A stretch of 64,000 bases of DNA from Escherichia coli (GTDB taxonomy: Bacteria > Pseudomonadota > Gammaproteobacteria > Enterobacterales > Enterobacteriaceae): NCBI RefSeq assembly GCF_022846255.1, contig NZ_AP025682.1; one strand, given 5' to 3'. Position numbers and translations under genes: made by a program. Below, in pieces: positions 39,185 through 54,549 of this stretch (the stretch's first letter is position 1; the number at the start of each line of letters is the position of its first letter). Under the pieces are notes generated by a model that worked only from the letters and a program-made list of their open reading frames with translations, was not told the DNA's origin and did no database searches.

Positions 39185-40234
39185 TCAGTCTGTTAGTGTG
39201 CGATTATCGATAACAAAACGATATTTCACATCACCACGCAGCATTCGCTCATAGGCTTCATTAATTTGATCGGCCCGAATCATCTCTATATCAGCCACGA
39301 TGCCATGTTCGGCGCAAAAATCGAGCATCTCCTGAGTTTCTGGAATGCCGCCAATCATAGAACCAGCTATCGCGCGGCGTTTCATGATCAGGTTGAAAAC
39401 TTCCGGGGATTTATGCGGTGTCGCAGGCGCACCAACCAGCGTTATGGTGCCATCGCGCTTCAGCAAGGTGGTAAAATCGTCGAGATTATGTGGCGCAGCT
39501 ACTGTATTCAAAATGAAATCGAAACTCTTCACATGAGCCGCCATCTCATCGGCATTGCGTGAGTTAACAACTTCATCGGCCCCCAGGGCTTTTGCCGCTT
39601 CGCGTTTTGACTCAGAAGTGGTAAATGCCACCACATGCGCCCCCATCGCGTGGGCCAGTTTAATCCCCATATGTCCCAGACCGCCGATGCCGACCACGCC
39701 CACTTTTTTACCCGGCCCGGCCTGCCAGTGGCGTAGCGGCGAGTACGTGGTGATTCCTGCACACAATAAAGGAGCCACCGCCGCCAGCTGCTCTTGCGGG
39801 TGACGAATACGCAGAACATATCGCTCATGAACGACGATCTGTTGTGAGTAGCCGCCCAGAGTATGGCCCGGTTCATCCGGTGTCGGCGAGTTATAGGTTC
39901 CGGTCATGTGATCACAGTAGTTTTCCAGCCCATCTTCACACTCTTCGCAATGTTTACAACTGTCGACAATGCAGCCGACACCAACCAGATCGCCCGGCGC
40001 ATGTTTTTCTACCTGATCACCAACGGCTACCACGCGCCCCACAATTTCATGACCCGGCACGCAGGGGTAAACCGTCCCCGCCCACTCCGAACGGACCTGG
40101 TGGAGATCGGAATGGCAGACGCCACAGTAAGCGATTTCGATTTTGACATCATGCGGTCCCGGTTCACGCCGGGTGATATCCATCGGTTCAAGGGGTTGTT
40201 TAGCGGAATATGCACCAACAGCTTTGATCTTCAT
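39185..40234 (-). CDS. yahK: NADPH-dependent aldehyde reductase (zinc alcohol dehydrogenase family)
   Basis: 349 aa; CGVCHSDLH and GHEIVG zinc-ADH motifs. Confidence 0.93.
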   Translation of the reverse strand: MKIKAVGAYSAKQPLEPMDITRREPGPHDVKIEIAYCGVCHSDLHQVRSEWAGTVYPCVPGHEIVGRVVAVGDQVEKHAPGDLVGVGCIVDSCKHCEECEDGLENYCDHMTGTYNSPTPDEPGHTLGGYSQQIVVHERYVLRIRHPQEQLAAVAPLLCAGITTYSPLRHWQAGPGKKVGVVGIGGLGHMGIKLAHAMGAHVVAFTTSESKREAAKALGADEVVNSRNADEMAAHVKSFDFILNTVAAPHNLDDFTTLLKRDGTITLVGAPATPHKSPEVFNLIMKRRAIAGSMIGGIPETQEMLDFCAEHGIVADIEMIRADQINEAYERMLRGDVKYRFVIDNRTLTD

Positions 40235-40320
40235 TGTGTTTACTCCTGATTAGCTATGTGTATTTGGCGATGCCTGATATGTCATCGCGGCAAAACGCGT
40301 CCATTGAATATAGCCAATAT

Positions 40321-41277
40321 TTAAACCACCCGATCCAGCCCCAACATGCCGCGAGCCTGAATGAAACAGAGCAGCAACGTTCCCCATAAGGCCATCGTCA
40401 GGTAGGGGCTTATACCGAGAATATTGAAGCCGCTTTCAATAATTTGCAGAAGAAACAGCGCCAGCACCATACCAATTATCCGCCCGCTGCCGCCGTCCGG
40501 ATTAACCCCGCCGAGTACTGCCGCGAGGATTGACACCAGCAAGTACGATTCGCCATAAGAGGCCTTAGCCGAGTTGAGTTTCGACATCATCAAAAATGCC
40601 GCTACCGCACAAAGCAAGGCGGAAATGACATACACCCATATCAGCACCCGACGAGTGTTAATACCGGAGTAAAGTGTTGCTCGTTCGTTAGAACCAATCA
40701 GATAAATGGCTTTACCGAGCGGCGTTTTCTCCAGCAATATCCACAGCCCCAGCGCCACTGCGGTAAACAACCACATCGGTAGCGGAATACCGAACCACTG
40801 TGCATGATTCAACCACAGCACCCATGAGGGATAATTGGCAATGGCGCTACCGCCTGTCACCAGAATATTTACCCCTTTGAGCAACGTCATCATCCCAAGC
40901 GTTGCAAGAATTGGCGACACTCGAATACCAGCAATCAATACGCCGTTACATAAACCGATTATCACCGCCGCGCCAGCGCCTGCCAGTAACGTAGCGACAA
41001 CCGTAGCAATACCCGGTGGATACTGAGTCGCCACCCACGCCATCACCAGTGAACAGGCGTTAGCAGTGGCTATAATTGACAAGTTAATGCCACCGCAAAG
41101 CATGGTCACCGCCATAGCCAACGCCAGAATGCCCAGCACGGGCATTTGCGAAGCGACGGACTGGAAATTACTTATCGACCAGAAAATCTCCGGCATAGTA
41201 ATGCTGAAGGCGGCAACAGTTAGCACCAGCAGGCCGATCAAGTAAAACTCAACGTTATTACGCCACGATTTTTTCAT
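40321..41277 (-). CDS. sugar ABC transporter permease (RbsC/LsrD-like)
   Basis: Polytopic membrane protein; ATG at 41277 overlaps the stop of the upstream permease as ATGA. Confidence 0.8.
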   Translation of the reverse strand: MKKSWRNNVEFYLIGLLVLTVAAFSITMPEIFWSISNFQSVASQMPVLGILALAMAVTMLCGGINLSIIATANACSLVMAWVATQYPPGIATVVATLLAGAGAAVIIGLCNGVLIAGIRVSPILATLGMMTLLKGVNILVTGGSAIANYPSWVLWLNHAQWFGIPLPMWLFTAVALGLWILLEKTPLGKAIYLIGSNERATLYSGINTRRVLIWVYVISALLCAVAAFLMMSKLNSAKASYGESYLLVSILAAVLGGVNPDGGSGRIIGMVLALFLLQIIESGFNILGISPYLTMALWGTLLLCFIQARGMLGLDRVV

Positions 41278-42245
41278 AGCAGACTCCGGTTCTGATGCTG
41301 ACTCCACGCCGTGGCGCTAATGCTGGCAACGATGATGATGCCAGTGATCAATGTTTGCCAGTAAGACGAGACTCCCAATAAATTTAGCCCGTTTTGCATC
41401 ACTGCCAACAACACCACGCCGAGCAAAGTACCGGTTAACGTGCCGCGCCCGCCGAGCAAACTAGTGCCGCCAAGCACCACCGCAGCCAGTACTGTCAGCT
41501 CATAACCCAGAAGAGAATCGGGGGCGACAGTCATCACCGTCCACGACTGCACTACACCCGCAGCACCAGACATCAATCCCATATAGCCATAGACGAAAAG
41601 TTGCAGTTTCAGCACACTAAAGCCGATGCGACTGGCTGATTCGCGGTTCCCGCCAAGGGCATAAATTTTGCGCCCTACACTGGTGAAATTCATGATAAAC
41701 GCTGTTAGCAGCACCACCGTAATCATGGCGATCAGCGGTAGACCAAGGCCATAGTCATAGCCATCAGCATCGGTGTACTTGAACAACATAACCCCCTGCT
41801 CAAACCACGGCGGAAAGTCGTACAGCCACACACCTTTACTCAACCATAACAGCAGGCCATAGAAAATATTCAGCGTCGAGATAGTGATGATGATAGAAGG
41901 CACCCGTAGGCGATTAACCAGTAAGGCGTTAATTAAGCCAAGTAAAATGCCGATGCCGCCCGCCAGTGCAAACGCGACAGCAAAGTTACCACCCATTTTT
42001 TGCAGCAACAGCACCATGCCGTATTGCGCAATGATGGTCATTGCTGGAAACGAAATATCAATTCCACCGGAAATCAACACCACAAACAAACCACAGGCGA
42101 GAATAGTCAACATGGCATAGTTATTGGCGAGATCGTACAAATTACCGAATGTCAGAAACTCGTCGCTGCGCCAGGCAAGGCCGACAAACAGCCCCACAAT
42201 CAGTAATGCCAGCCAGAATTCATGACGTTTTTTCAGTTCAGCCAT
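41274..42245 (-). CDS. sugar ABC transporter permease (RbsC/LsrC-like)
   Basis: 323 aa polytopic membrane protein; start overlaps the ATPase 3' end by 8 nt. Confidence 0.8.
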   Translation of the reverse strand: MAELKKRHEFWLALLIVGLFVGLAWRSDEFLTFGNLYDLANNYAMLTILACGLFVVLISGGIDISFPAMTIIAQYGMVLLLQKMGGNFAVAFALAGGIGILLGLINALLVNRLRVPSIIITISTLNIFYGLLLWLSKGVWLYDFPPWFEQGVMLFKYTDADGYDYGLGLPLIAMITVVLLTAFIMNFTSVGRKIYALGGNRESASRIGFSVLKLQLFVYGYMGLMSGAAGVVQSWTVMTVAPDSLLGYELTVLAAVVLGGTSLLGGRGTLTGTLLGVVLLAVMQNGLNLLGVSSYWQTLITGIIIVASISATAWSQHQNRSLL

Positions 42246-43722
42246 TTACCACCTCCGCAATCCTGGCCTGAGAACTGCTGTCAGGCAGGAAGCTATGGGT
42301 GATCTGACCTTTTTGCATTACCAAAATCCGGTGGCTTTGATACCACGCTTCTTCAATTTCATCGCAGATCATCAATACCGCAATGCCATGAGCCGCCAGA
42401 TCGCTGATAATGCCGTATATTCCTGCTTTGTTGGCGATATCAACACCGACTGTCGGGCTATCGAGAATCAACAGTCGTGGCCCAATCGCCAGCCATTTGG
42501 CGATCGATACTCGCTGCGCGTTACCACCAGAAAGCGTATTCACCGGGAGATGTGGGTCAGAGACTTTGATGGTCAATGCCTTGATTAGCCTGTCCACCAG
42601 GTCACGCACTTTAGCTTCACTCAGAAAGCCGAAGCGATCTTTTACCTTGTGAAAAACAGTGCTAATGATGTTGTCTTCAATAGATTGCGCCATCACCAAA
42701 CCGCGCGACATGCGATCTTCCGAAACATAACCAATACCGTGGCGGATGGCGTCCTGGTTACTATGCAGTGTAACCGGCTGACCGTTGATGAGGATCTCGC
42801 CAGCATCCGGTCGGGTCATACCAAACAGACTCAGACATAATTCCGTGCGCCCCGCACCAAGCAGGCCAATAATCGACACCACTTCGCCCGCTTCCACCCG
42901 CAAGTTAATATTTTGATATTCCCCATGACGACTTAAATTACGCACCTCCAGCACTGGGATGCTGGATTTTCCCTGCCACAACTCTCGTACCTGATATTCA
43001 AACTCCTGGCCGGTCATCAGGAAACCGAGTTGTTTTGTGGTCATCTCTGCAGCCGGAAAGGTCCCGACCAGCTCACCATCTTTCAGCACTGAAATACGGT
43101 CGGAAACTTCCATCACCTCTTCCAGACGATGACTGACGAAGACCACGCAGATCCCGCGTTCCCGCAATTGATGCACCACCTGTAATAACCCTTGCACTTC
43201 CTGATGGGTCAGCGAAGCGGTTGGTTCATCCATCACAATCAACCGTGCGTCCTGCGCCAGTGCACGGCAAATTGCCACCAGCTGACAGCGGGCAATTGAA
43301 AGCTCAGAAACGAGCGTATCCAGTGGCAATGTGACGTTAACACTGGTCATTGCCGCCTGCGCCACCTCACGCAGACGACGTCGGTTAACAAACAGACCGT
43401 GGTGATAGTGATTCACGGCGATATTCTCCCAGACACTCAGGTTAGGAAATAAAGAGAGGTCCTGATAAATCACCTGAATCCCCTGCGCCACCGAAGCGGC
43501 GGGTGTCAGCTTTGACCAGTTTTTCCCACCAAGCGTAATTTCCGCTCCCTCATCCGGGCGATAAACACCGGACATAATTTTAATCAACGTCGATTTACCA
43601 CAGCCGTTTTGCCCGGCAAGGCAGTGCACTTCACCCGACATAAAGTCGAGAGAAACATCGCGCAGCGCTCGCGTGGCATGAAACGTTTTGTTGATATGAC
43701 GAAGGGAAAGGAAGGTTTCCAT
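42238..43722 (-). CDS. sugar ABC transporter ATP-binding protein with two fused ABC domains (RbsA/LsrA-like)
   Basis: From ATG 43722 (METFLSLRHINKTF...), preceded by AGGGGA; Walker A GQNGCGKST, second domain GLLGAGRTEL, signature LSGGNAQR. Confidence 0.85.
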   Translation of the reverse strand: METFLSLRHINKTFHATRALRDVSLDFMSGEVHCLAGQNGCGKSTLIKIMSGVYRPDEGAEITLGGKNWSKLTPAASVAQGIQVIYQDLSLFPNLSVWENIAVNHYHHGLFVNRRRLREVAQAAMTSVNVTLPLDTLVSELSIARCQLVAICRALAQDARLIVMDEPTASLTHQEVQGLLQVVHQLRERGICVVFVSHRLEEVMEVSDRISVLKDGELVGTFPAAEMTTKQLGFLMTGQEFEYQVRELWQGKSSIPVLEVRNLSRHGEYQNINLRVEAGEVVSIIGLLGAGRTELCLSLFGMTRPDAGEILINGQPVTLHSNQDAIRHGIGYVSEDRMSRGLVMAQSIEDNIISTVFHKVKDRFGFLSEAKVRDLVDRLIKALTIKVSDPHLPVNTLSGGNAQRVSIAKWLAIGPRLLILDSPTVGVDIANKAGIYGIISDLAAHGIAVLMICDEIEEAWYQSHRILVMQKGQITHSFLPDSSSQARIAEVVNG

Positions 43723-43770
43723 AACATCCCCTGGCAATAAGAATCGGGGCTTTCGCCCCGAAGAAATGGA

Positions 43771-44757
43771 TTAATAAAGTGAGTCGATATTGTCTTTGTT
43801 GACCAGTAATACCTTATGGAAACGGATAATTCGCTTATCCATATCTACGTCGGCCTTCCCCAGATTCTGCATTTCTAATCCAGGTTTGATCTCTTCACCC
43901 TTCAGCAACGTGCTGGCGACGGCTGCGAGTGCGTAACCTGCAGAGGCCGGATCGTAAGTAATCCCTTCGGTGATATCACCACTTTTAATCAGTGATGCCG
44001 CCTGTGAAGGAATCATCATGCCATAGACTGCGACTTTATTTTTCGCCCGTTTCTCTTTCACTGCACGTCCCGCGCCAATCGGACCGTTTGAACCAAAGGA
44101 GACAACCGCTTTCAAGTCAGGATAGGTTTTCATCAGGTCCAGTGTGGTACGACGTGAGTCATCCACACTCTCGGCAACCGGCATGCGGCGGGTAACTTCA
44201 TGCATATCCGGGTAATGCTCTTTCTGGTATTTCACCAGCAAGTCAGCCCATAAGTTATGCTGCGGCACGGTCAAACTACCCACGTAAATCACATAGCCGC
44301 CCTTGCCACCCATGCGTTTCGCCATATGTTCAACATATTCAGCGGCAAATTTTTCGTTATCAATGATTTCGATATCCCAGTTAGCACTTAGCTGACCGGG
44401 GGATTCGTTGGTCAGAACCACAATTCCGGCATCTCGCGCTTTTTTGAATACCGGTTCCAGCACGTTGGCATCGTTTGGCACAATTGTAATTGCATTAACC
44501 TTACGGGCGATTAAATCCTCAATAATTTTAACTTGTTGCGGAGCATCAGTACTTGAAGGCCCCACCTGTGACGCATTAACACCAAAGGCTTTACCCGCCT
44601 CAACCACACCTTCGCCCATGCGATTAAACCACGGCATACCATCGACTTTAGAGATATTCACCACGACTTTTTCCGCTGCCTGGAGCGGCGCAGAAATTAG
44701 CGCAGCGCCTAATAACAGCGAAGACACCATATTGATAACAAAACGTTTATTCATCAT
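43771..44757 (-). CDS. periplasmic sugar-binding protein, LsrB/RbsB-like
   Basis: 328 aa with signal peptide MMNKRFVINMVSSLLLGAALISAPLQA; N- and C-terminal blocks resemble LsrB (...NKDNID...). Confidence 0.8.
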   Translation of the reverse strand: MMNKRFVINMVSSLLLGAALISAPLQAAEKVVVNISKVDGMPWFNRMGEGVVEAGKAFGVNASQVGPSSTDAPQQVKIIEDLIARKVNAITIVPNDANVLEPVFKKARDAGIVVLTNESPGQLSANWDIEIIDNEKFAAEYVEHMAKRMGGKGGYVIYVGSLTVPQHNLWADLLVKYQKEHYPDMHEVTRRMPVAESVDDSRRTTLDLMKTYPDLKAVVSFGSNGPIGAGRAVKEKRAKNKVAVYGMMIPSQAASLIKSGDITEGITYDPASAGYALAAVASTLLKGEEIKPGLEMQNLGKADVDMDKRIIRFHKVLLVNKDNIDSLY

Positions 44758-45003
44758 TTCAGCCTCATTGCAGGGTAGTCAGGAAGTGTTCGCCCAAATT
44801 AGCGCGCTGGAGAGAATAAGAATTTTCGAATATTTTTATGCAGAATAAACAGCCCTATTTCAGGCAGCTATTAAAAATTTGGTTATAAATATGGACAAAA
44901 CGGGCAGCAACAATAAGTGTGATAATCATCACGTAAAAAACAGCAAAATAAACAAAATTAGCGATACTTTATGTTTGTGAGCTTATTTCGCGTAGAAAAA
45001 TAG

Positions 45004-45418
45004 TTATCTACACAACGTCAATAAGGGCATATTCTTCAAAGATAACGTCCATTTCGGGTGAATAGCATCCTTCTGCCTGGAAAAAACGACGGTGTTCATT
45101 ACGCCAATATTCAAGACTGAGGTCACCTTCACCTTCCTTACGGGCAAGCTCTGCGGTGACATCAGAAAAGCGCAGTAAATGCAGGCCAATCACTCTGATA
45201 ACACAGACAGGCTCACCACGGCTATTTTCTACAATCTTATACTCACCAATCAGCGGAAATGCGTTGTCTTCAATACATCCCGCCAGCGAACCACAGGAAG
45301 CTGTTTTAACACCAGTCGCAATCAACGTTGCGAGGTGATCGGCCAACGCTGCTGAATCGCCAAAAGTACAAAAGGAAGCATGGGGATATTTTTGTGAGAT
45401 TTTTTCTTTTATGGTCAT
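45004..45418 (-). CDS. small cytoplasmic protein, possibly ASCH/PUA-like
   Basis: about 138 aa from ATG 45418 (MTIKEKISQKYPHASF...); fold assignment is a weak guess from motif resemblance. Confidence 0.4.
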
Positions 45419-45717
45419 GAGAATATTTTCGCGATTACGGAAAAACAAATCACATCTTAATTACTGTTGATAACCATCAGCAAGAAGATCATTGGTTTTT
45501 CGATGCTTAATCTTTTTTATCCGAAGCAGGTCACATTTATGGCTTGATAAATATCTTTGTTAAAACTCACTTTTGTGTATTTCTCTCAAATAATCCCCTG
45601 GAAATTACGCCCGGAGATTATAAAGTTCAGGATCATTCATTAGCAAACCATTGCTGCCCCACTCCCTGGGGCTTTAAATCTCTTACTGTTCACCATTGCA
45701 GGCGTTTCAAATGCGTA

Positions 45718-47100
45718 TCAACCTGCCACGCTCCCCCACACCAGTTGCCCTTTATGGAACGTTGCGGTTCTCGGCGAGATACGCGCCACCGCCTCGGCGG
45801 AACAGGAGGCGTCCACCAGCACAAAGCTGGCGTCATCCTGCGCTTTAGGCCACACGCGCTCGCCTTTTTCGTTGAGCGGCAATACATCGCCAGTGGCTAA
45901 AAACAGCGAGCGGGAGAGGTTCTGTTCGTTAGGACGAATATAGAGCTGCGCGTACAGATTGGCTTTTTCCAGCATGTCGCCCAGGCCGTAAGGCGACCAG
46001 TGGTCGATAACGCTGTCGGTGCCGGTCATCACTTTTACGCCTTTGTCGTGCAACTGTTTGAGCGGCATATGCAGCGTGCCAATCGGTACCGTCGAGGCGA
46101 TAGAAATTTGCTGCGCCGCCATCCGGTGCGCCAGTTCATCTACCTGTTGTTCGTTGAGCGTTGCCAGCGCGAAGGCGTGGCTGATGGTCAGCTTGCCCTT
46201 CAGCTGTGGCGTTTTCTCTACCGTTTCAACCATATAATTGATGGCTGCCACGCCTGCCGGAGTGGTTTCGTGCAGGTGAATATCGACGCCTTTGTCGTAG
46301 TCCAGCGCAATCTGGAACATGGTGTCGAGGGATTTTTCCATCGCGCCATCGACACTGGTCGGGTCCAGCCCGCCGACGTAATGCGCGCCCGCCTGCATTG
46401 CTTCACGCATTAAAGGTTCCGATTTCGACAGCAGCAAACCGTGCTGCGGGAAGGCGACAATTTCACACTCGAAGCCCGCCTGACGTCGCGCCAGCACCGA
46501 CTGCAAATTTTGCAGATTTTTCAGGCCGGAAACCGGTTCGATATTGCAGTGGCTGCGGGCAATGGTGGTGCCTTTTGACTGCAATAAATCGATCAGTTTT
46601 TCCGCCCGTTCCTGAGTATATGGTTGCAGCTCCGGCAGCATTTTCTGCTCGAGTTTGATCATGTCCTGGATAGTGGTGCCTGCCGGACGATTGAGCGAGC
46701 GCCACGGCCCGCCGTAGAAGGTTTTATCGAGATGAATATGCATGTCGCGGGTGGTGGGCAGCATCAGCTTACCGCCAGCGTCATAGTGCGGCAGCGTGGC
46801 GTCCGGATGCTGCTTGTTCTCGCGCAGGGCAACAATTTTACCGTCCTGAATCTCCACGGTCTGGCGCGCCGTGCGGGTCTGTACCGCCACGCCATTTTCG
46901 TAGTCAAAACCGGTTTCCAGCAGCACGTTATCGAGATAGTAATGCGGGTCAGTGATTTTCATGGTGTTGTTCGCTTCGCAGTTTAGGGTGCCAGCTACCC
47001 CCGCATGGGCGAGCGGCACTGAGGGACCAAACAGCGCGGCGGCGGTAACCATCTTACCGCTCTGGCTCAGAAATTCACGGCGGCTATTGTTTTCTTTCAT
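45718..47100 (-). CDS. yahJ: Tat-exported metal-dependent amidohydrolase/deaminase
   Basis: 460 aa; twin-arginine signal SRREFLSQSGKMVTAAALFGPSVPLAHA; HIH metal site. Confidence 0.9.
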   Translation of the reverse strand: MKENNSRREFLSQSGKMVTAAALFGPSVPLAHAGVAGTLNCEANNTMKITDPHYYLDNVLLETGFDYENGVAVQTRTARQTVEIQDGKIVALRENKQHPDATLPHYDAGGKLMLPTTRDMHIHLDKTFYGGPWRSLNRPAGTTIQDMIKLEQKMLPELQPYTQERAEKLIDLLQSKGTTIARSHCNIEPVSGLKNLQNLQSVLARRQAGFECEIVAFPQHGLLLSKSEPLMREAMQAGAHYVGGLDPTSVDGAMEKSLDTMFQIALDYDKGVDIHLHETTPAGVAAINYMVETVEKTPQLKGKLTISHAFALATLNEQQVDELAHRMAAQQISIASTVPIGTLHMPLKQLHDKGVKVMTGTDSVIDHWSPYGLGDMLEKANLYAQLYIRPNEQNLSRSLFLATGDVLPLNEKGERVWPKAQDDASFVLVDASCSAEAVARISPRTATFHKGQLVWGSVAG

Positions 47101-47109
47101 CTTACGTCC

Positions 47110-48060
47110 TTAGGTTTTAATAATATGGGTGCCCGTTTCGCCGCGTAGCGCCGCAGGCAGGCATTCCGGCGTGGTGATAATCACTTCTTTGCCGCCTTGT
47201 TCCAGGAACGTCAGGCTGGCGATGATTTTTGGCAACATGCTGCCAGGTGGGAAATGCCCTTCCTGCATATAGCGGGTCATGGTGGCAATATCTACGCGAT
47301 CCAGCGCCTGCTGCTGCGGTTTGCCAAAGTGAATACACACTTTTTCGACGCCAGTGGTGATCACCAGAATGTCGGCGTGAATTTCGCGAGCCAGTAGCGC
47401 GGTAGAGAAATCTTTGTCGATAACCGCGTCCACGCTTTGGTAATCCCCCGCGTCAGTACGCACTACCGGAATTCCGCCGCCGCCCGCGCCAATCACCACA
47501 AAGCCTTGTTGGATCAGCGCCTTAATGGCAGGTGCTTCGACAATACGTTTCGGTTCCGGCGAGGCGACCACGCGGCGATAGCCCCGTCCGGCATCTTCAA
47601 CAAAACGCCAGTCAGGGTTTGCCTTTTGTAGTTCGTCACGCTGGCTTTCATTAAAGAATGCGCCAATGGGTTTGGTGGGATGAGCAAAACCCGGATCGTT
47701 TTTATCCACTTCCACCTGGGTCACCACGGTGACGGCTTTTTTCTCGCCATGACGCGCCAGTCGGTTGTTCAGCGCCTGCTGGATCAGATAGCCAATGCCA
47801 CCTTGCGTATCCGCCACACAGTTCGCCAGCGGCGTTAAGGGCAGCCCTTCGCGCTCGTGGGCAATCTCCGCGCGGCGTAAATCCAGCCCGACCTGCGGCC
47901 CGTTGCCGTGGGTCAGCACAATGTCGTAATCGGAAGCCAGCATTTCCAGCACCGTATCGGCCACGGCTTTCACCGCCTCCGCCTGATGCTCAATCGACTG
48001 GCTGGCGTTATCTTTGATAATGCTGTTGCCACCAATGGCAACGACCACAAGTTCTTTCAT
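47110..48060 (-). CDS. yahI: carbamate kinase-like protein
   Basis: 316 aa MKELVVVAIGGNSIIKDN..., amino-acid kinase fold. Confidence 0.9.
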   Translation of the reverse strand: MKELVVVAIGGNSIIKDNASQSIEHQAEAVKAVADTVLEMLASDYDIVLTHGNGPQVGLDLRRAEIAHEREGLPLTPLANCVADTQGGIGYLIQQALNNRLARHGEKKAVTVVTQVEVDKNDPGFAHPTKPIGAFFNESQRDELQKANPDWRFVEDAGRGYRRVVASPEPKRIVEAPAIKALIQQGFVVIGAGGGGIPVVRTDAGDYQSVDAVIDKDFSTALLAREIHADILVITTGVEKVCIHFGKPQQQALDRVDIATMTRYMQEGHFPPGSMLPKIIASLTFLEQGGKEVIITTPECLPAALRGETGTHIIKT

Positions 48061-48104
48061 GTTGTTATGTCCGCGACAGAGGGTGATGGGGTTATGACCA
48101 ACGC

Positions 48105-48292
48105 CAGACTGCCTGATGCGCTACGCTTATCAGGCCTACAGATTCTTGCGCCACTCGTAGGCCGGATAAGGCGTTCACGCCGCATCCGGCTGTGGTGGCC
48201 AATGCCTGAAGCGCCACGCTTATCAGGCCTACAGATTTCCGCGCCATTCGTAGGCCGGATAAGGCGTTCACGCCGCATCCGGCAGAAACAAC
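48105..48292. repeat. tandem REP/BIME cluster between yahI and yahG
   Basis: Two ~95-bp units, each CTGATGCGCTACGCTTATCAGGCCTACAG...GTAGGCCGGATAAGGCGTTCACGCCGCATCCGGC. Confidence 0.8.
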
Positions 48293-48306
48293 GCGCACTT
48301 TACAGA

Positions 48307-49725
48307 TCAGACGCCGTAACGTTCGCACCAGCCAAAAATGGCTTTCTCGAAGCAGGCGAAGGGTGGATGCACAATGCCCGCGCCAATCATGCCGACGCCC
48401 GCATCTTTATGGGCGATGGCGGTGTTGATCACTGGCAGAATGCCGCTGCTACCCACGCGGGTGATGTCGATTGCCGACGGAACGCCCATAAAACCGAGCA
48501 GCGGAATGGTGACGTTGGGGTTTTCGCCAAGGGTGATTTCACGCATCTGACGGGAGAAATCGATAGCCTCTTCCACCGTGCCACCCACCAGCGCGACGAT
48601 CGCGGGCGCGGTCGCCATCGCAAATCCGCCGATACCGTAGGTTTCGGTGATGGCGCTGTCGCCAATATCCAGCCCTGAATCTTCCGGCTTATAACCGGCA
48701 AACATCGGGCCGATGACCTGCTGCGCCGGGCCGGTAAACCACTGCCCCGGCAGGCCGCTGACCCGCAGGCCGAACTCGACGCCGTTACGCGCCATGGTGG
48801 TCACCACGGTGCTGTATTCGATGCCGTGCGCCGCATCCATCGCCGCTTTACACATCGCCATCCACGTCGGGCCGGAGAAGTAGTCGCTGCTGGCGACAAA
48901 CTCAAACACTTCGCGCTGTTGCTCGACGGAATAACCTGCCTGAATAATCCCCGGCGTCAGCGCCTGAATCAGCAGCGTCGTCCCGGCGTTATTGCGGTTA
49001 TGGCATTCATCGCCCATATGCAGCGCCTGCGCCAGCATTAAGCGCAGATCGATTTCGCCGATAATTTTCATCGCGTCGCGCAGCATGGGTCCCTGCACAT
49101 CGCGCATCCAGTTGAGGCGGTCGATCACGCTCTGGTCGTTAGCGCCCATACGCAAAATCTTCGCCATCTGCTCGCTCATGTTGGTATAAGCGACGTTGCC
49201 ATAGGTTTTGTTTTTCACGATGTGCATAAACATCGAGGCCGAGGTGACGCCCGCCATCGATCCCACACAGTCGTGCTCGTGGCACGGCGAGAAGGTGATC
49301 TCCCCGGAAGCCGCCAGCTCAGCCGCCTCGTCGAGATCTTTCGCCAGTCCTTCAAACACCAGCGCTCCGGTGACCGCGCCTTTCATCGCGCCGCACATTT
49401 TTTCCCAGGTGACCGGCGGCCCGGCGTGAAGAATGGTTTTCGGCGTCATGCCCGGCACCACGTTAATCGCCTGATCAAAACCAATCAGCACCGGATGCGA
49501 CTGGATAATGCGCTCCAGCGCCTGCTGGTTAGCGGCGGTGATTTTGTCCGCCAGCGGCGAATCGGCAATGTTGTCCAGTGCCTGCACCACCTGCATATTG
49601 CCCTGCCCCGGCGGCGTCCAGTCGAGTTGGGTCACTTCTACATGCTGCTTTTTCAGATCATCGCTAAACATGGCGATACCGACGTTAATAACGTTCAACG
49701 GTTGGCTAAACAGTGACTGGCTCAT
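48307..49725 (-). CDS. yahG: DUF1116 protein (YlbE/AllG paralogue)
   Basis: 472 aa. Confidence 0.88.
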   Translation of the reverse strand: MSQSLFSQPLNVINVGIAMFSDDLKKQHVEVTQLDWTPPGQGNMQVVQALDNIADSPLADKITAANQQALERIIQSHPVLIGFDQAINVVPGMTPKTILHAGPPVTWEKMCGAMKGAVTGALVFEGLAKDLDEAAELAASGEITFSPCHEHDCVGSMAGVTSASMFMHIVKNKTYGNVAYTNMSEQMAKILRMGANDQSVIDRLNWMRDVQGPMLRDAMKIIGEIDLRLMLAQALHMGDECHNRNNAGTTLLIQALTPGIIQAGYSVEQQREVFEFVASSDYFSGPTWMAMCKAAMDAAHGIEYSTVVTTMARNGVEFGLRVSGLPGQWFTGPAQQVIGPMFAGYKPEDSGLDIGDSAITETYGIGGFAMATAPAIVALVGGTVEEAIDFSRQMREITLGENPNVTIPLLGFMGVPSAIDITRVGSSGILPVINTAIAHKDAGVGMIGAGIVHPPFACFEKAIFGWCERYGV

Positions 49726-51272
49726 CAGGCTTCCTCCCCTTTGCAGATAAATTCACGCGCCAGCAATCCGGTATTGGTGCTGCTGCTCGCCAGAATCACT
49801 CCGGCATCAAGCAGCATCTGGCTTTGTTGTTCTAATGATGGCGTATCGAGATCGGTGCCCAGCACATAGGCGAGAATGATCAACTCGCGTCCTTCGGCAG
49901 CGGCGATCGCTTTCGCTTCTTTGATCGCCTCGATGGTGGAACCGACCGGATCTTCATGCGATCCAAATCCGAGCACAAAATCCATCACGATCACCGCCAC
50001 TTCTGGATCGCGCGCTTCTTCGATCAAGCGGCTGATACGGTTGGTCGGGTCAATCATTGGATGCGGCTTGCCGTTGGTGAAGTCATCATCGCCAAAATCG
50101 AGGAAGGTGTGTTTGATGCTGCGGTTGATATCTTGCAGGCGGAATTCAGGATCGGGCTGGATATTGCTGTAGACATCGCCATGTTTTTCCATCACCGCGA
50201 ACAGGGTTTCGTCACACAGCGTACCGCCGCAGAACAGACCACGAATGTATTTCTGCTGCGGTTGCAGACGCGCACGCACATCCGCAATCAACGGCTGGTT
50301 AAGCGTATGCAGGTCGAGATGTTCTTGTTTCACGCCGGAGAGCATCACCGCTTTCAATGCCGCCTCTTTGCTGCCGCGAGCAAACTGTAGCCCCTGCTCA
50401 TCCACTGGCGTTTCGCCACGACCGAGGAAGCAGGCCACCACTGGCTTGCGGCAGGCGCGTGCGCGTTCCAGCACTTTGCGGGCCACCGCAGGCGCAGGCG
50501 GTTTGGAGATAAGCACAATGATTTCAGTTTGCGGATCGTTTTCCAGCATCCCGATGGCATCGAGCATCATCAGGCCACCGATTTTCTCGCTCAGGTCGCG
50601 CCCGCCGGTGCCGATCAGTTGTGAAACGCCGCCACCAAATTCATGGATACGGACGCTCAATTCCTGGCTGCCGGTGCCAGATGCGCCAACAATACCGATG
50701 TTGCCGCGACGCACGGCGTTACCAAAGCAGAGCGCCGCGCCGTTGATAATCGCCGTGCCGCAGTCTGGCCCCATCATCAGCAGCCCTTTTTCATGGGCCA
50801 ACTGTTTGAGCGCCAGTTCATCTTCAACTGAGACATTATCGGAAAACAGCATCACGTTGAGGTCATTTTGCAGCGCCTGACGCGCTTCGCGAGCGGCAAA
50901 CAGACCGTTGACCGAAATCACTGCCAGGTTACTTTCCGGGATATGCTTTTTGGCGCTGGCAATAGTGCCGTAACGCGCCTCGTGCGAGCCGCTTTGCGCT
51001 TTGGTGTTGAACAGTTCTTCAATCTCCGCCAGCAACTGCTCGTTGTCCACACCCGATTTACCATTGATGACAATCATCAGGTCGCCGTTTTTCGCCTGCT
51101 CCAGCTCCGGCGTCAGCAGTCCTAAATTCTTCAACACGCCTTTGTTCATTTCGGTCGCCATCGCCACAAATGCCTGCTCGACGCCGTCGAGTTTATTTGC
51201 ACGCGTGGAGATAGACATCAGCGAGACAGAATCAAAATAGGTATTCGGTTTAATGACTATTTTAACTGACAT
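49725..51272 (-). CDS. yahF: FdrA-like CoA-binding protein (FdrA/AllF paralogue)
   Basis: 515 aa; succinyl-CoA-synthetase-alpha-like Gly-rich motifs. Confidence 0.88.
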   Translation of the reverse strand: MSVKIVIKPNTYFDSVSLMSISTRANKLDGVEQAFVAMATEMNKGVLKNLGLLTPELEQAKNGDLMIVINGKSGVDNEQLLAEIEELFNTKAQSGSHEARYGTIASAKKHIPESNLAVISVNGLFAAREARQALQNDLNVMLFSDNVSVEDELALKQLAHEKGLLMMGPDCGTAIINGAALCFGNAVRRGNIGIVGASGTGSQELSVRIHEFGGGVSQLIGTGGRDLSEKIGGLMMLDAIGMLENDPQTEIIVLISKPPAPAVARKVLERARACRKPVVACFLGRGETPVDEQGLQFARGSKEAALKAVMLSGVKQEHLDLHTLNQPLIADVRARLQPQQKYIRGLFCGGTLCDETLFAVMEKHGDVYSNIQPDPEFRLQDINRSIKHTFLDFGDDDFTNGKPHPMIDPTNRISRLIEEARDPEVAVIVMDFVLGFGSHEDPVGSTIEAIKEAKAIAAAEGRELIILAYVLGTDLDTPSLEQQSQMLLDAGVILASSSTNTGLLAREFICKGEEA

Positions 51273-52125
51273 AATTCCCTCCGTAGGTTTGACTCAGCGC
51301 ACAACCATCGGCCATGCCATACAGCATGTCGCAGCCGGAACTGGAGCCAATATGTTTAATTTTTTCTATTGCCTGAGTTGCGTTCCCAGGGATGTCATAA
51401 ATAATGTTGTGAATAAAACGATGAATATTTTCCCGGCAGCGTTGTTGTAATGCGGCTTCCAGCGTGATGGCACTTAATAACGTGGTATTATTTCTGCCGC
51501 GTTGCAAACCGAGATAAAATTCCTCTTTGTATTTTTCCGCCGGATGTCCGGAAATAAATAAAATAAGTACCAGTCCGGTCAGATAATCATCGGCTGATGG
51601 CGTAAGGCCAATCCCTAAGCCCATCATACTGGCGACTGCTGAGGCGATATTTTGTTTATCGTTTACGGCCTGAATAACTGCCCGTCGTTTAATATGTAGT
51701 TCTTTATTTAACGCCTGATAAAACGGATTATCGCCGCGATAATTAAACAGGGTTTCATTTTCCCCCAGGTGCTGATGAATAATGTCGTGCCACTGTTGCC
51801 AGGCGATAAGGTGAAAATTCACAGCGGTCATTTGCAAGGTTGGGGACAGCCAACGCCGACAACGACTCATCTCTATATGAAGATGTTGACCAACCGTAAT
51901 GCCTTGATCGTCAAACTGAACCTTATCACCATGCCGGAACAGACCATTAAAGTGAGTGAGTGCCAACCGACAACTGTTTGGCGCATTGTCGTACTCTTCA
52001 CAAAGCAGCGTTAGCAACTGCTGGCGAGCCGGGAGTGCGATATTTACCGCTCTGGCAAAGACCTGTTCAACCTGTCCTTGCCCCCGCTGCGCCAGAAAAT
52101 CAGCATCCGCAGTTAGCGCCCACAC
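51262..52125 (-). CDS. yahE: DUF2877 protein (YlbF/AllH paralogue)
   Basis: 287 aa; non-ATG start as given by the ORF track; overlaps yahF by 11 nt. Confidence 0.8.
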   Translation of the reverse strand: MWALTADADFLAQRGQGQVEQVFARAVNIALPARQQLLTLLCEEYDNAPNSCRLALTHFNGLFRHGDKVQFDDQGITVGQHLHIEMSRCRRWLSPTLQMTAVNFHLIAWQQWHDIIHQHLGENETLFNYRGDNPFYQALNKELHIKRRAVIQAVNDKQNIASAVASMMGLGIGLTPSADDYLTGLVLILFISGHPAEKYKEEFYLGLQRGRNNTTLLSAITLEAALQQRCRENIHRFIHNIIYDIPGNATQAIEKIKHIGSSSGCDMLYGMADGCALSQTYGGNYVS

Positions 52126-52164
52126 ACACCGTTTTTCTGGTGTGTTGATAGCAAGCCTCCCGGT

Positions 52165-52770
52165 TTATGCACCTGCGGCGATCAGCAACTGCGCAATCTC
52201 TTCAAAGCCCCGTTCCCGCGCCAGTTCCAGCGGCGTTTTGCCATATTTATCGGTCAGATGCGGGCTGGCACCGTGTTCCAGCAATAACTGGACAATCGCC
52301 TGCTGTTTAATCCCGCCATCGTTAAGCACAATCGCTTCCAGCAACGGTGTCCAGCCAACATGGTTAGTCTGGTTAACGTTAATCTCCGTATTTGCCAAAA
52401 GCTCTTTTACAATACTTAAATGGCCTTTTTCACAGGCAGGCGTCAGGCCGACACCGCCAAAACGGGTTACGCAATTAATATCGGGTTTAGCCGGTAAAAT
52501 AATTCGTAGTAGCGTTAAATCATCGTTCAGACAGCTAATTAAAAAAGGATTTAAACAGGTATGATCTTGTTTATTAATATTCGCTCCGGCGTCAATTAAT
52601 GCCTGAACGCAAGCATATTGCTGATATAAACTTGCCAGCGTAATTGCCGTTTTCCCCTGACGATCGCAGGTATTAATATCGACACCCAGCGCAAGGCAGA
52701 TTTTTACTTTATCGATATCCCCCTGTTGCGCAGCCAATAAATAGTCTGCAGGTAGATTTTTTATAGTCAT
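52165..52770 (-). CDS. yahD: ankyrin-repeat protein
   Basis: 201 aa with ankyrin motifs (GKTPLELA, LLEHGA...). Confidence 0.88.
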   Translation of the reverse strand: MTIKNLPADYLLAAQQGDIDKVKICLALGVDINTCDRQGKTAITLASLYQQYACVQALIDAGANINKQDHTCLNPFLISCLNDDLTLLRIILPAKPDINCVTRFGGVGLTPACEKGHLSIVKELLANTEINVNQTNHVGWTPLLEAIVLNDGGIKQQAIVQLLLEHGASPHLTDKYGKTPLELARERGFEEIAQLLIAAGA

Positions 52771-53027
52771 TCACATTCACCTGGTTTTTGTGGCTGTTTT
52801 CGATGAATTGAGAATAGCAACGATAATCTGATAAAAGAACCCGCTTAAATTTAATTCGCCGTATTTCGCCTTTTTGTTGAATGATGTTCAACAATCTTTT
52901 CGCAGTGTGCGGTAGTGCAATATTTGTTTCTTTGACCCGATACCCTTTCACTCAATCAGGTTTTATTTCTCTATAGTCTGTACATGTAAGAGTAGCTTTC
53001 GTCCATGTCTAACCAGAGGGGAACAAG

Positions 53028-53525
53028 ATGAACGGACTCACGGCAACGGGTGTCACCGTCGGTATTTGTGCAGGGCTTTGGCAGTTAGTGTCTTCACATG
53101 TCGGGCTCTCTCAGGGATGGGAATTATTAGGAACCATTGGCTTCGTCGCCTTTTGCAGTTTTTATGCCGCAGGCGGCGGTAAATCGGGGTTTATCAGAAG
53201 TCTGGCGGTTAATTATTTCGGGATGGTGTGGGCCTTTTTCGCCGCGCTGGCTGCCGGCTGGCTGGCCTCTGTAAGTGGGATTTCCGGGTTCTGGGCGAGC
53301 GTGATTATGACTGTACCCTTCTCGGCGGTGGTGGTCTGGCAAGGACGTTTCGGTTTACTGTCTTTTATTCCCGGAGGCTTTCTCGGCATGACGCTATTTT
53401 TTGCCAGCGGGATGAACTGGACGGTGACATTACTGGGTTTTCTGGCGGGTAACTGCGTGGGGATAATTTCAGAATATGGCGGACAAAAATTAAGCGAAGC
53501 GACGACTAAACGCGACGGGTATTAA
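53028..53525 (+). CDS. yahC: inner membrane protein YahC
   Basis: 165 aa hydrophobic protein. Confidence 0.85.
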   Translation: MNGLTATGVTVGICAGLWQLVSSHVGLSQGWELLGTIGFVAFCSFYAAGGGKSGFIRSLAVNYFGMVWAFFAALAAGWLASVSGISGFWASVIMTVPFSAVVVWQGRFGLLSFIPGGFLGMTLFFASGMNWTVTLLGFLAGNCVGIISEYGGQKLSEATTKRDGY

Positions 53526-53616: not shown

Positions 53617-54549
53617 ATGAACTCAATTTTTACCGAAGAGAATCTGTTGGCATTTACTACCGCTGCGCGTTTTGGCAGTTTCAGTAAAGCCGCAGAAGAG
53701 TTGGGTTTAACCACTTCCGCCATTAGCTACACCATCAAGCGAATGGAAACAGGGCTGGATGTGGTGCTGTTCACTCGCAGTACCCGAAGCATTGAGTTAA
53801 CGGAGTCCGGGCGTTATTTTTTCCGCAAAGCTACCGACCTGCTGAATGATTTTCACGCCATCAAACGCAGCATCGATACTATTTCGCAGGGTATAGAAGC
53901 ACGGGTGCGCATTTGTATTAACCAACTGCTTTATACGCCCAAACACACCGCACGCTTATTACAGGTACTGAAAAAGCAGTTTCCAACCTGCCAGATTACC
54001 GTGACGACCGAAGTGTATAACGGCGTCTGGGATGCGATTATTAATAATCAGGCGAATATTGCTATCGGCGCGCCCGACACACTGTTGGACGGCGGCGGCA
54101 TTGATTACACGGAGATTGGCGCAATTCGCTGGGCTTTTGCTATCGCCCCGGATCACCCATTAGCCTTTGTGCCGGAACCCATCGCCGAAAGCCAACTGCG
54201 TCTCTATCCTAATATCATGGTGGAGGACACCGCGCATACGATTAATAAAAAAGTGGGCTGGTTGCTGCATGGGCAGGAGTCGATTCTGGTGCCAGATTTC
54301 AACACCAAATGTCAGTGCCAGATTTTAGGTGAAGGAATTGGTTTTTTGCCGGATTACATGGTCCGTGAGGCGATGGCGCAATCCCTGCTGGTTACCCGAC
54401 AAATCCATAATCCGCGCCAGGATTCACGCATGTTACTCGCAACTCAGCATTCTGCTACGGGTCAGGTGACGCAGTGGATTAAAAAACAATTTTCGCCAAA
54501 TGGCATATTAACGGGGATCTATCAGGATTTACTGCATCGGGAGAATTAA
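53617..54549 (+). CDS. yahB: LysR-family transcriptional regulator
   Basis: 310 aa; N-terminal HTH LAFTTAARFGSFSKAAEELGLTTSAISYTIKRME. Confidence 0.9.
   Translation: MNSIFTEENLLAFTTAARFGSFSKAAEELGLTTSAISYTIKRMETGLDVVLFTRSTRSIELTESGRYFFRKATDLLNDFHAIKRSIDTISQGIEARVRICINQLLYTPKHTARLLQVLKKQFPTCQITVTTEVYNGVWDAIINNQANIAIGAPDTLLDGGGIDYTEIGAIRWAFAIAPDHPLAFVPEPIAESQLRLYPNIMVEDTAHTINKKVGWLLHGQESILVPDFNTKCQCQILGEGIGFLPDYMVREAMAQSLLVTRQIHNPRQDSRMLLATQHSATGQVTQWIKKQFSPNGILTGIYQDLLHREN

Follow-up and report, generated by a model that had tools for sequence, protein, structure and literature searches.

A 2024 review of the Escherichia coli K-12 y-ome lists the yah genes as uncharacterised and records neither a function nor a phenotype for them; likewise, our literature search (yah genes, DUF1116/DUF2877, and FdrA together with ankyrin) found no functional study. 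Here we consider six of these genes, yahJ, yahI, yahG, yahF, yahE and yahD, at positions 45,718–52,770 of a 64,000-nucleotide stretch of contig NZ_AP025682.1 (RefSeq assembly GCF_022846255.1), which as a whole we call the window. The window comes from E. coli: over 7 kb it is 99.4% identical to many complete genomes of this species, in which the same genes are annotated. An earlier note, made from the sequence without database searches, read the cluster as a paralogue set of the allantoin-pathway oxamate carbamoyltransferase proteins, joined to a carbamate kinase and an exported amidohydrolase and fed by a neighbouring importer. The open reading frame (ORF) list and the translations give six intact ORFs, all on the minus strand, exactly where that note had placed them:

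45718–47100, minus strand: yahJ, 460 amino acids (aa), a metal-dependent aminohydrolase of the AtzC/CodA subgroup, probably periplasmic
47110–48060, minus strand: yahI, 316 aa, a carbamate kinase paralogue
48061–48306 (246 bp): gap filled with repetitive extragenic palindrome (REP)/bacterial interspersed mosaic element (BIME) sequence, the former 'yahH', with two GCCGGATGCGGCGTGAACGCCTTATCCGGCCTAC / TGTAGGCCTGATAAGCG units
48307–49725, minus strand: yahG, 472 aa, a subunit of the AllG family (DUF1116)
49725–51272, minus strand: yahF, 515 aa, an AllF/FdrA-family protein resembling the succinyl-CoA synthetase alpha subunit, without the catalytic histidine
51262–52125, minus strand: yahE, 287 aa with a GTG start, a subunit of the AllH family (DUF2877)
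52165–52770, minus strand: yahD, 201 aa, an ankyrin-repeat protein with matches to ankyrin profiles

Base 49725 is common to yahF and yahG, and yahE and yahF overlap by 11 nt (51262–51272), as the earlier note had said to the nucleotide. These overlaps, and the conservation of the promoter region ahead of yahD, fit the single operon that the note had proposed. In enterohaemorrhagic E. coli (EHEC), ribosome-profiling footprints span the yahG–yahI gap, and the authors of that study treat yahDEFGIJ as one operon.

Homology to AllF, AllG, AllH and AllK

The oxamic transcarbamylase (OXTCase) AllFGH and the carbamate kinase AllK are biochemically established (Kim & Kim 2022, 2024; PMC11326118, PMC9843812). 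Purified AllFGH interconverts carbamoyl phosphate plus oxamate and oxalurate with no need for coenzyme A (CoA), and full activity requires AllH (PMC11326118). Homologues of all three OXTCase subunit families are encoded together in the window. In BLASTP comparisons with the K-12 proteins, YahF is 39% identical to AllF (E 1e-102), YahG 45% identical to AllG (E 6e-119), YahE 24% identical to AllH (E 4e-10), and YahI 38% identical to AllK (E 2e-57). The Pfam AllH profile (PF11392) matches YahE with E 2e-28, and the invariant motifs GxGxGLTPSxDD and IGSSSGxD are common to YahE and AllH; the predicted structure of YahE (predicted local distance difference test (pLDDT) score 88) found no structural neighbour in the PDB. 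Yah orthologues bear the Pfam HMA_AllF_N and AllG domains. YahF passes the NCBIfam model PRK06091 (492 bits, cut-off 433), and YahI passes the carbamate kinase subfamily model PRK12352 (649 bits, cut-off 266) while scoring slightly under the cut-off of the arcC equivalog TIGR00746 (347.6 against 358.25). The note had named profile searches against the AllF/G/H set as a possible refutation; Pfam AllH, NCBIfam and BLASTP instead uphold the homology. YahF, YahG and YahE are thus paralogues of FdrA, YlbE and YlbF, and YahI of carbamate kinase, as that note had recognised from the letters alone. Its suggestion that the proteins could release carbamoyl phosphate and make ATP holds as an inference from this homology.

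The boundary between the F and G genes has moved. The C-terminal ∼45 residues of AllF (555 aa) have their homologous counterpart in the N-terminal ∼50 of YahG, which at 472 aa is longer than AllG (419 aa): YahG residues 8–52 (window 49546–49725) correspond to positions 509–553 of the FdrA model and match the AllF tail directly (E 4e-8). This N-terminal segment is present in all Yah-type G proteins compared, and the F/G gene boundary therefore differs between the Yah and All groups. Its position suggests either that the segment lies at the F–G interface or that F and G were once fused.

A separate, widely conserved orthologous group

For the comparison across genera, a YahG scan of one genome per species returned 473 relatives; the best 80 of these 473 loci were examined and scored by tblastn with the window proteins, and 76 were informative for the yahG–yahI interval. 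A common gene order recurs in more than 25 genera of Enterobacterales plus Aeromonas: yahB in the opposite orientation, then yahD, yahE (in some loci), yahF, yahG, an ORF for a 515-aa membrane protein (in some loci), yahI and yahJ. Across these loci YahG is 86–99% and YahF 76–98% identical. The 515-aa protein, used as a query, led to further clusters in Brevibacillus, Janthinobacterium, Pasteurella, Bosea and Paenibacillus. All of these but Pasteurella were compared by identity. In the four genera, which represent the Bacillales and the alpha/beta-proteobacteria, the G proteins are 71–78% identical to YahG versus 45–47% to AllG, the F proteins 61–72% identical to YahF versus 36% to AllF, and the kinases 46–63% identical to YahI versus 35–40% to AllK. 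Yah-type proteins are not closer to AllFGH than to other groups, and orthology with the all set fails. Neither the window annotation nor the 80 loci place allantoin genes near the yah cluster.

By these comparisons, the yah set is an old, independently conserved orthologous group, a sister of the All enzymes and no recent duplicate. Hence the term 'paralogue set' stands as a statement of homology, but the view of the genes as recent paralogues gives way to that of a distinct and far more conserved group. The paralogy itself is not new, since recent RefSeq annotation already has yahG as 'AllG family' and yahE as 'AllH family'; what is new, as judged from the alignments, is that AllFGHK has a distinct and widely conserved sister system equipped with additional components. 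In both systems homologues of the same three subunits and the kinase are tightly linked in one operon, an AllS-like LysR-type regulator lies near the Yah set, and the expected output is the same, carbamoyl phosphate followed by ATP, NH3 and CO2. The gene order differs, being E-F-G-(transporter/REP)-I in Yah and F-G-H-K in All. Unlike AllFGHK, the Yah system has an obligatory ankyrin partner, its own transporter of 7+7 fold and an associated deaminase; its E subunit is dispensable in many genomes, and upstream allantoin genes are missing. Identity to the all set is only 24–45%, whereas the Yah group itself is 60–78% conserved across phyla.

E. coli has a further cluster of this general kind. 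The ygeW–yqeA region, an anaerobic purine/urate cluster with a third carbamate kinase, likewise combines a carbamoyltransferase with a carbamate kinase and presumably draws ATP from a ureido intermediate. YgeW, however, is a classical transcarbamylase of the aspartate/ornithine transcarbamylase (ATCase/OTCase) fold and not of the F/G/H type, and the region contains neither an ankyrin nor a twin-arginine translocation (Tat) component.

Within the species, prevalence was counted in 5426 complete E. coli genomes. Separate searches found yahD–G in 5005 and yahI–J in 5035 of them (∼92–93%). We discarded a figure of 57% (3111/5426) as an artefact of the REP-filled gap, because the separate searches raise it to ∼93%; a query that includes the gap matches a median of 32 places per genome, versus one without it. 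Between this strain and K-12, the ratio of nonsynonymous to synonymous substitution rates (dN/dS) is 0.03–0.10 for all six genes. The six yah genes are under strong purifying selection and near-core in E. coli. Decay across strains, the other refutation that the earlier note had allowed for, is ruled out by the intact frames, the dN/dS values and the presence of the cluster in ∼93% of genomes. Separately, in the top E. coli match yahD–G are 99.9% identical versus only 98.3% for yahI–J; this unequal identity suggests that recombination had a breakpoint in the region of the REP-filled gap.

The ankyrin protein, YahE and a dedicated transporter

A YahD homologue adjoins the F and G genes in every Yah-type cluster seen. 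Its identity to YahD is 54% in Brevibacillus and 68% in Janthinobacterium. Bosea and Paenibacillus have the YahD-like part (37% identity) as the N-terminal half of a 387–410-aa protein, the C-terminal half of which is repeat-rich and, by eye, apparently TPR-like. The K-12 all cluster has no ankyrin gene. We dropped the idea that YahD is a Tat hitch-hiker or chaperone for YahJ, as it accompanies F and G also where YahJ is absent, and an upstream ORF in Shewanella, considered as a candidate ankyrin homologue, shows no similarity.

The least conserved gene is yahE (35–64% identity in other genera). It is absent from ∼25 of the 80 loci, including those of Enterobacter, Leclercia, Lelliottia, Silvania, Huaxiibacter and Aeromonas. 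In these loci the yahD–yahF gap is ∼100 bp, and a search within ±10 kb gave no AllH-like match even at E 1e-2. The 515-aa ORF of Aeromonas was examined as a hidden YahE, but has no similarity to it and is a membrane transporter.

In 58 of the 76 informative loci the gene for this 515-aa membrane protein stands between yahG and yahI, and it also lies in or beside all of the distant clusters. The protein sequence has no Pfam, NCBIfam or PDB match. The name 'xanthine permease' in the source annotation would make it an NCS2/AzgA carrier, an assignment by sequence that we rejected (hhalign probability of 0.7% against a PF00860 permease). An AlphaFold model (pLDDT 72, predicted template modelling score (pTM) 0.70) matches the 7+7 elevator fold of SVCT1, UraA, BicA, SLC26 and AZG2.

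The remaining 18 loci, which lack the transporter, belong to Escherichia, Kluyvera, Pseudocitrobacter, Klebsiella/Raoultella and C. amalonaticus. In E. coli the yahG–yahI gap contains REP elements, and no permease remnant was found there. From its distribution, the system's own 515-aa permease has been lost from the E. coli chromosome. The permease-less loci carry another small gene:

53028–53525, plus strand: yahC, 165 aa, a small polytopic membrane protein (DUF1097)

The YahC translation is almost wholly hydrophobic, and the protein is annotated as DUF1097. It is encoded between yahB and yahD in 18 of 18 permease-less loci that reach that side, and in none of the 58 permease-bearing loci. 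This mutual exclusion may reflect functional replacement, or one lineage-specific rearrangement.

YahJ and a probable deaminase step

The YahJ N-terminus, MKENNSRREFLSQSGKMVTAAALFGPSVPLAHA, contains the twin-arginine signal to which the earlier note had drawn attention:

47002–47100, minus strand: Tat signal peptide of YahJ, residues 1–33 (SRREFL ... AHA), read from the translation

In each of ∼76 loci, spread over more than 25 genera, the YahJ orthologue has an RRxF[LI] motif and a hydrophobic stretch, and Pasteurella testudinis YahJ has the same Tat motif. As the motif and the hydrophobic region are found in every orthologue inspected, the predicted periplasmic location appears to be a conserved property. 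YahJ has also been listed as a predicted Tat substrate, and a yahJ mutant was mildly attenuated in mouse competition (competitive index (CI) 0.70, p 0.02; PMC7549933).

YahJ passes the NCBIfam 'amidohydrolase' subfamily model PRK06846 (717 bits, cut-off 447) and matches Pfam Amidohydro_3/_1. The nearest solved structures are 6nbo (E 2.5e-44), AtzC (3e-30) and CodA (1e-16 to 4e-20). YahJ aligns over the whole catalytic domain with AtzC (N-isopropylammelide isopropylaminohydrolase) and CodA, enzymes that take off an exocyclic amino or alkylamino substituent of triazine or pyrimidine rings. Its HxH...K, SH, Q, HxHE, SH and D..W motifs align with AtzC, the segments DMHIHLDK, SHCN, PQHG, DIHLHE, ISHAF and GTDSVIDHW falling on AtzC segments that hold metal ligands and catalytic residues. 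Unlike AtzC and CodA, YahJ has a ∼75-residue N-terminal extension with the Tat signal, and against cytosine deaminase equivalog models it scores 71–104 bits, far under the cut-offs of 403–483.

In nearly all gammaproteobacterial loci yahJ follows yahI. Brevibacillus encodes, at the corresponding place, a 152-aa zinc deaminase of CDA fold (HAE and PCxxC motifs); Bosea has a signal-less AtzC-like amidohydrolase that is 30% identical to YahJ; a deaminase gene is absent from the Janthinobacterium cluster and from the ColV plasmid copy described below. Since non-homologous deaminases replace YahJ elsewhere, its step would be a hydrolytic deamination and an accessory one, and deamination is the most likely reaction to judge from these sequences. 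Of the periplasmic amidohydrolase first proposed, we thus keep the predicted export, supported by the conserved Tat motif, and revise the chemistry. Two further contexts are worth recording: Pragia fontium has yahD, yahJ and yahB together without F, G and the kinase, and a Shewanella sp. has yahJ alone, so the Tat-type amidohydrolase can be retained in the absence of the carbamoyl-transfer genes.

The yahD upstream region and YahB

Upstream of yahD lie several conserved elements, followed beyond yahC by a regulator gene:

52771–53027, minus strand: yahD promoter/operator region with conserved blocks
52809–52821: -10-like GTTGCTATTCT, yahD upstream
about 52840–52860: conserved TTTAAGCGG block, yahD upstream
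52874–52894: perfect 21-bp palindrome TTGTTGAA-N5-TTCAACAA, a candidate regulator-binding site
52907–52920: conserved block TTGCACnnnCGCAC, yahD upstream
53617–54549, plus strand: yahB, a LysR-type regulator, nearest AllS and PunR

An alignment of this region from 10 genera (Aeromonas to E. coli) and the ColV plasmid copy contains four blocks (52809–52920) that are invariant or nearly so. YahB matches the NCBIfam models AllS (E 7.7e-80; 268 bits, under the cut-off of 372) and PunR (E 8.6e-71, also under its cut-off). It is 74–95% conserved and adjoins the cluster in all loci, and yahB is divergent from yahD in 58 of 58 transporter-type loci. YahB is probably the regulator of the operon, and a plausible activator acting at the conserved blocks.

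The neighbouring ABC importer and ASCH gene

Downstream of yahJ, at a distance of 270 bp and in the same orientation, is an ATP-binding cassette (ABC) operon:

40321–45448, between yahK and yahJ: ABC importer and ASCH gene (two permeases, an ATPase, a binding protein and an ASCH-domain protein)

All five genes occur in 2211 of the 5426 E. coli genomes. The binding protein is of the CUT2 sugar type, matching rhamnose (RhaS), autoinducer-2 (AI-2; LsrB), allose and ribose models under their cut-offs. In the 80 loci from other genera, no genes related to this importer lie beside the cluster. The earlier note had taken the importer for an insertion. The corresponding intergenic regions of K-12 and KC-Dl-1, however, still contain the 3′ ends of two of these genes, 72 nt of the distal permease gene and 48 nt of the ASCH gene, and a 75-nt pseudogene is also annotated. 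Given these 3′ scars, the importer is ancestral at this site in E. coli and was lost from K-12-like strains by two deletions. The same comparison also concerns window positions 40119–40392, 44986–45055 and 45655–45826.

The ASCH protein matches the Pfam ASCH domain (E 1.3e-21). We tried and rejected its identification as a YqfB-like N4-acetylcytidine amidohydrolase: the Pfam domain is common to both, but there is no pairwise similarity. Between yahJ and the ASCH gene lies a promoter-like site, TTGCTA-18-TATAAT (10/12 matches), at 45617–45646 on the minus strand, consistent with separate transcription of the ASCH and ABC genes. A wider promoter and terminator scan was uninformative, giving fewer matches than shuffled sequence and no terminator after yahJ. 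Overall, the genomic comparisons make the sugar-type ABC importer and the ASCH gene unrelated neighbours of the cluster and not components of the yah system.

A proposed acyl-ureide pathway and its alternatives

We lean towards the view that the Yah-type genes are a distinct orthologous group of the oxamate-carbamoyltransferase and carbamate-kinase module, and that they carry out acyl-ureide phosphorolysis to carbamoyl phosphate and thence ATP, which we hold to be somewhat probable. The reaction chemistry, flux direction and class of substrate are inferred, as are the roles of YahD, YahC and YahB. In most genera, a substrate of acyl-ureide type would enter through the dedicated 515-aa transporter of NAT/AzgA/SulP fold. 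In the Escherichia/Kluyvera/Klebsiella lineage, where the transporter has been lost and YahC is carried instead, uptake would take another route, perhaps YahC. A cytoplasmic YahF/YahG complex, aided by YahE and the ankyrin protein YahD in an accessory or scaffold role, would then transfer the carbamoyl group of the acyl-ureide to phosphate, the substrate being one other than allantoin-derived oxalurate. From carbamoyl phosphate and ADP, YahI would make ATP, NH3 and CO2. YahJ would serve as an accessory front end, turning an amino or imino analogue of the substrate into its oxo form by periplasmic deamination ahead of uptake, and YahB, the AllS/PunR-like LysR-type protein, would activate the operon from the conserved promoter upstream of yahD.

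Genetic data from K-12 bear on the relation between the two sets. Deletion of allF, allG or allFGH leaves no oxamate from allantoin although yahEFG is intact (PMC11326118), so the Yah set does not replace the All set under those conditions, through either a differing specificity or a lack of induction. The same study reports residual oxamate, 1.2 mM with allH deleted, and 7% and 16% with only allFG or allGH supplied (PMC11326118); it is speculation that this could reflect cross-complementation by Yah subunits.

Genomic context offers hints at the substrate. Distant Yah-type clusters adjoin PucR regulators, an allantoin-permease-like NCS1 carrier and an M20 (AllC-like) hydrolase, and isochorismatase-family hydrolases are found both in nitrifier clusters and in a related island of E. 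coli. Taken together with the AtzC-like and CDA-fold deaminases, this context hints at ureides derived from purines or pyrimidines, triazine-like rings or biuret-type compounds. A bolder reading, which we find decidedly unlikely, makes ankyrin, F and G (with or without H) a four-component enzyme that phosphorolyses, and possibly ring-opens, a nucleobase-like cyclic acyl-ureide or its open form imported by the 7+7-fold carrier. Candidates would be oxidised or aza-pyrimidine or triazine diones, parabanate and biuret-type compounds. If true, the enzyme and the kinase together would make up an oxygen-independent, ATP-yielding catabolic route, hitherto undescribed, in most Enterobacterales and also in Bacillales and alpha/beta-proteobacteria, with a substrate range widened by interchangeable periplasmic and cytoplasmic deaminases.

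Several points weigh against the acyl-ureide proposal. Its chemistry rests on 24–45% identity to AllFGH, and the requirement for subunits may differ, since many loci lack yahE and AllH is needed for full OXTCase activity. The coupling of a periplasmic deaminase to cytoplasmic enzymes is unusual, and YahJ may have an independent role, as in the Pragia and Shewanella contexts. The 515-aa transporter matches neither PF00860 permeases nor PDB entries by sequence, and its fold match is equal for NAT, AzgA and SulP carriers, so that nucleobase-like substrates and small anions are not separable. The role given to YahC follows from a correlation in a single lineage, and the chromosomal E. coli copy, having no dedicated transporter, may work poorly or need another carrier. 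Finally, the 80-locus set was fetched with YahG peptides and is skewed to close relatives.

Among the alternatives, the cluster could encode a second oxalurate (oxamate) carbamoyltransferase and kinase that uses its own transporter to scavenge oxalurate, or a close precursor, from outside the cell, with a regulator different from that of the allantoin regulon. Homologues with common invariant motifs exist for each of the three OXTCase subunits and for the kinase, AllS is the best match of YahB, and the transporter fold includes SulP/SLC26 carriers of small anions such as oxalate and bicarbonate; the PucR, NCS1 and M20 neighbours of the distant clusters and the residual oxamate, if it is made by Yah subunits, could be read in the same way. 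Yet the K-12 allF, allG and allFGH deletions yield no oxamate (for which a lack of induction could account), the two sets coexist in the same genomes at 24–45% identity while Yah-type G proteins exceed 70% across phyla, which argues for a distinct constraint, and neither the recurrent deaminase nor the obligatory ankyrin partner is explained; we consider this alternative rather unlikely. Distinctly improbable, in our judgement, is that the E. coli chromosomal cluster is a crippled remnant, silent or functionless and kept by linkage or drift. The REP elements that stand in place of the permease of 58 other loci, the y-ome listing without a recorded K-12 function or phenotype, and the 65 E. coli plasmids that hold a complete transporter-bearing copy, as if supplying a missing function, would fit such a remnant. 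The six intact frames under purifying selection in ∼93% of 5426 genomes do not, nor do the EHEC ribosome footprints in the operon, the mild attenuation of the yahJ deletion in mice (PMC7549933), or the retention of the permease-less, yahC-bearing layout in Kluyvera, Klebsiella, Raoultella, Pseudocitrobacter and C. amalonaticus.

The route of the earlier note, periplasmic hydrolysis by YahJ, import by the ABC system and then carbamoyl transfer by YahEFG and YahI, has in its favour the position of the ABC operon next to yahJ on the same strand, its presence in 2211 E. coli genomes, and the conserved Tat signal, with which a periplasmic step followed by uptake and cytoplasmic carbamoyl transfer is compatible. 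We nonetheless find it very improbable: in other genera the 80 loci have no ABC genes of this kind beside them, the binding protein fits sugar models, the cluster persists in K-12-type strains without the importer, a promoter-like site separates yahJ from the ASCH gene, and the system has another protein, the 515-aa permease, as its conserved transporter. The ABC importer accordingly drops out of the hypothesis. As little probability attaches to YahF being an acyl-CoA synthetase (NDP-forming), its NCBI name, in a cluster that activates or cleaves acyl-CoA. YahF does have CoA_binding and Ligase_CoA domains and matches the succinyl-CoA synthetase alpha subunit (E 4e-20). However, its homologue AllF sits in a purified, CoA-independent carbamoyl-transfer enzyme (PMC11326118), and a carbamate kinase gene is always adjacent. 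The phosphohistidine of SucD, His246 (MGHAGA), is a Tyr in YahF and a Phe in AllF, in an alignment that crosses large insertions and calls for caution; lacking this residue of the succinyl-CoA synthetase alpha subunit, YahF is unlikely to merit the name.

Mobile copies and significance

A second Yah-type set is found on 65 E. coli and six Klebsiella plasmids, mostly large conjugative plasmids of IncF/ColV type (e.g., pAPEC-O2-211A-ColV, NZ_CP030791.1, 87785–96218). It encodes the LysR-type regulator, the ankyrin protein, DUF2877, FdrA and DUF1116 proteins, the 515-aa transporter and the carbamate kinase; yahJ is missing from it. IS1 and Tn3 border the set, which one contig has next to the aerobactin genes. 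A yahE/yahF/yahG-like set with a carbamate kinase also occurs in the tkt1 pathogenicity island of extraintestinal pathogenic E. coli (ExPEC) APEC O1 (NC_008563, 4322434–4327992) (PMC3349570). Unlike the Yah-type plasmid set, that of the island is accompanied by an isochorismatase-family hydrolase and by another permease. These combinations suggest one ATP-yielding end module plugged into different upstream enzymes.

The yah genes belong to the y-ome of the best-studied bacterium, yet they are near-core and 70–90% identical across phyla, which is typical of important enzymes. What had been a vague paralogy is now a testable system composed of the ankyrin protein, the F, G and H subunits, the kinase, the transporter, the deaminase and a LysR-type regulator with a conserved operator. 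For experiments, the transporter-bearing versions (Citrobacter, Enterobacter and the ColV plasmid) are better suited than K-12. If our proposal is true, a new ATP-yielding ureide pathway would bear on anaerobic nitrogen and energy metabolism in the gut and the urinary tract, and could help to explain the second copy on ExPEC virulence plasmids.

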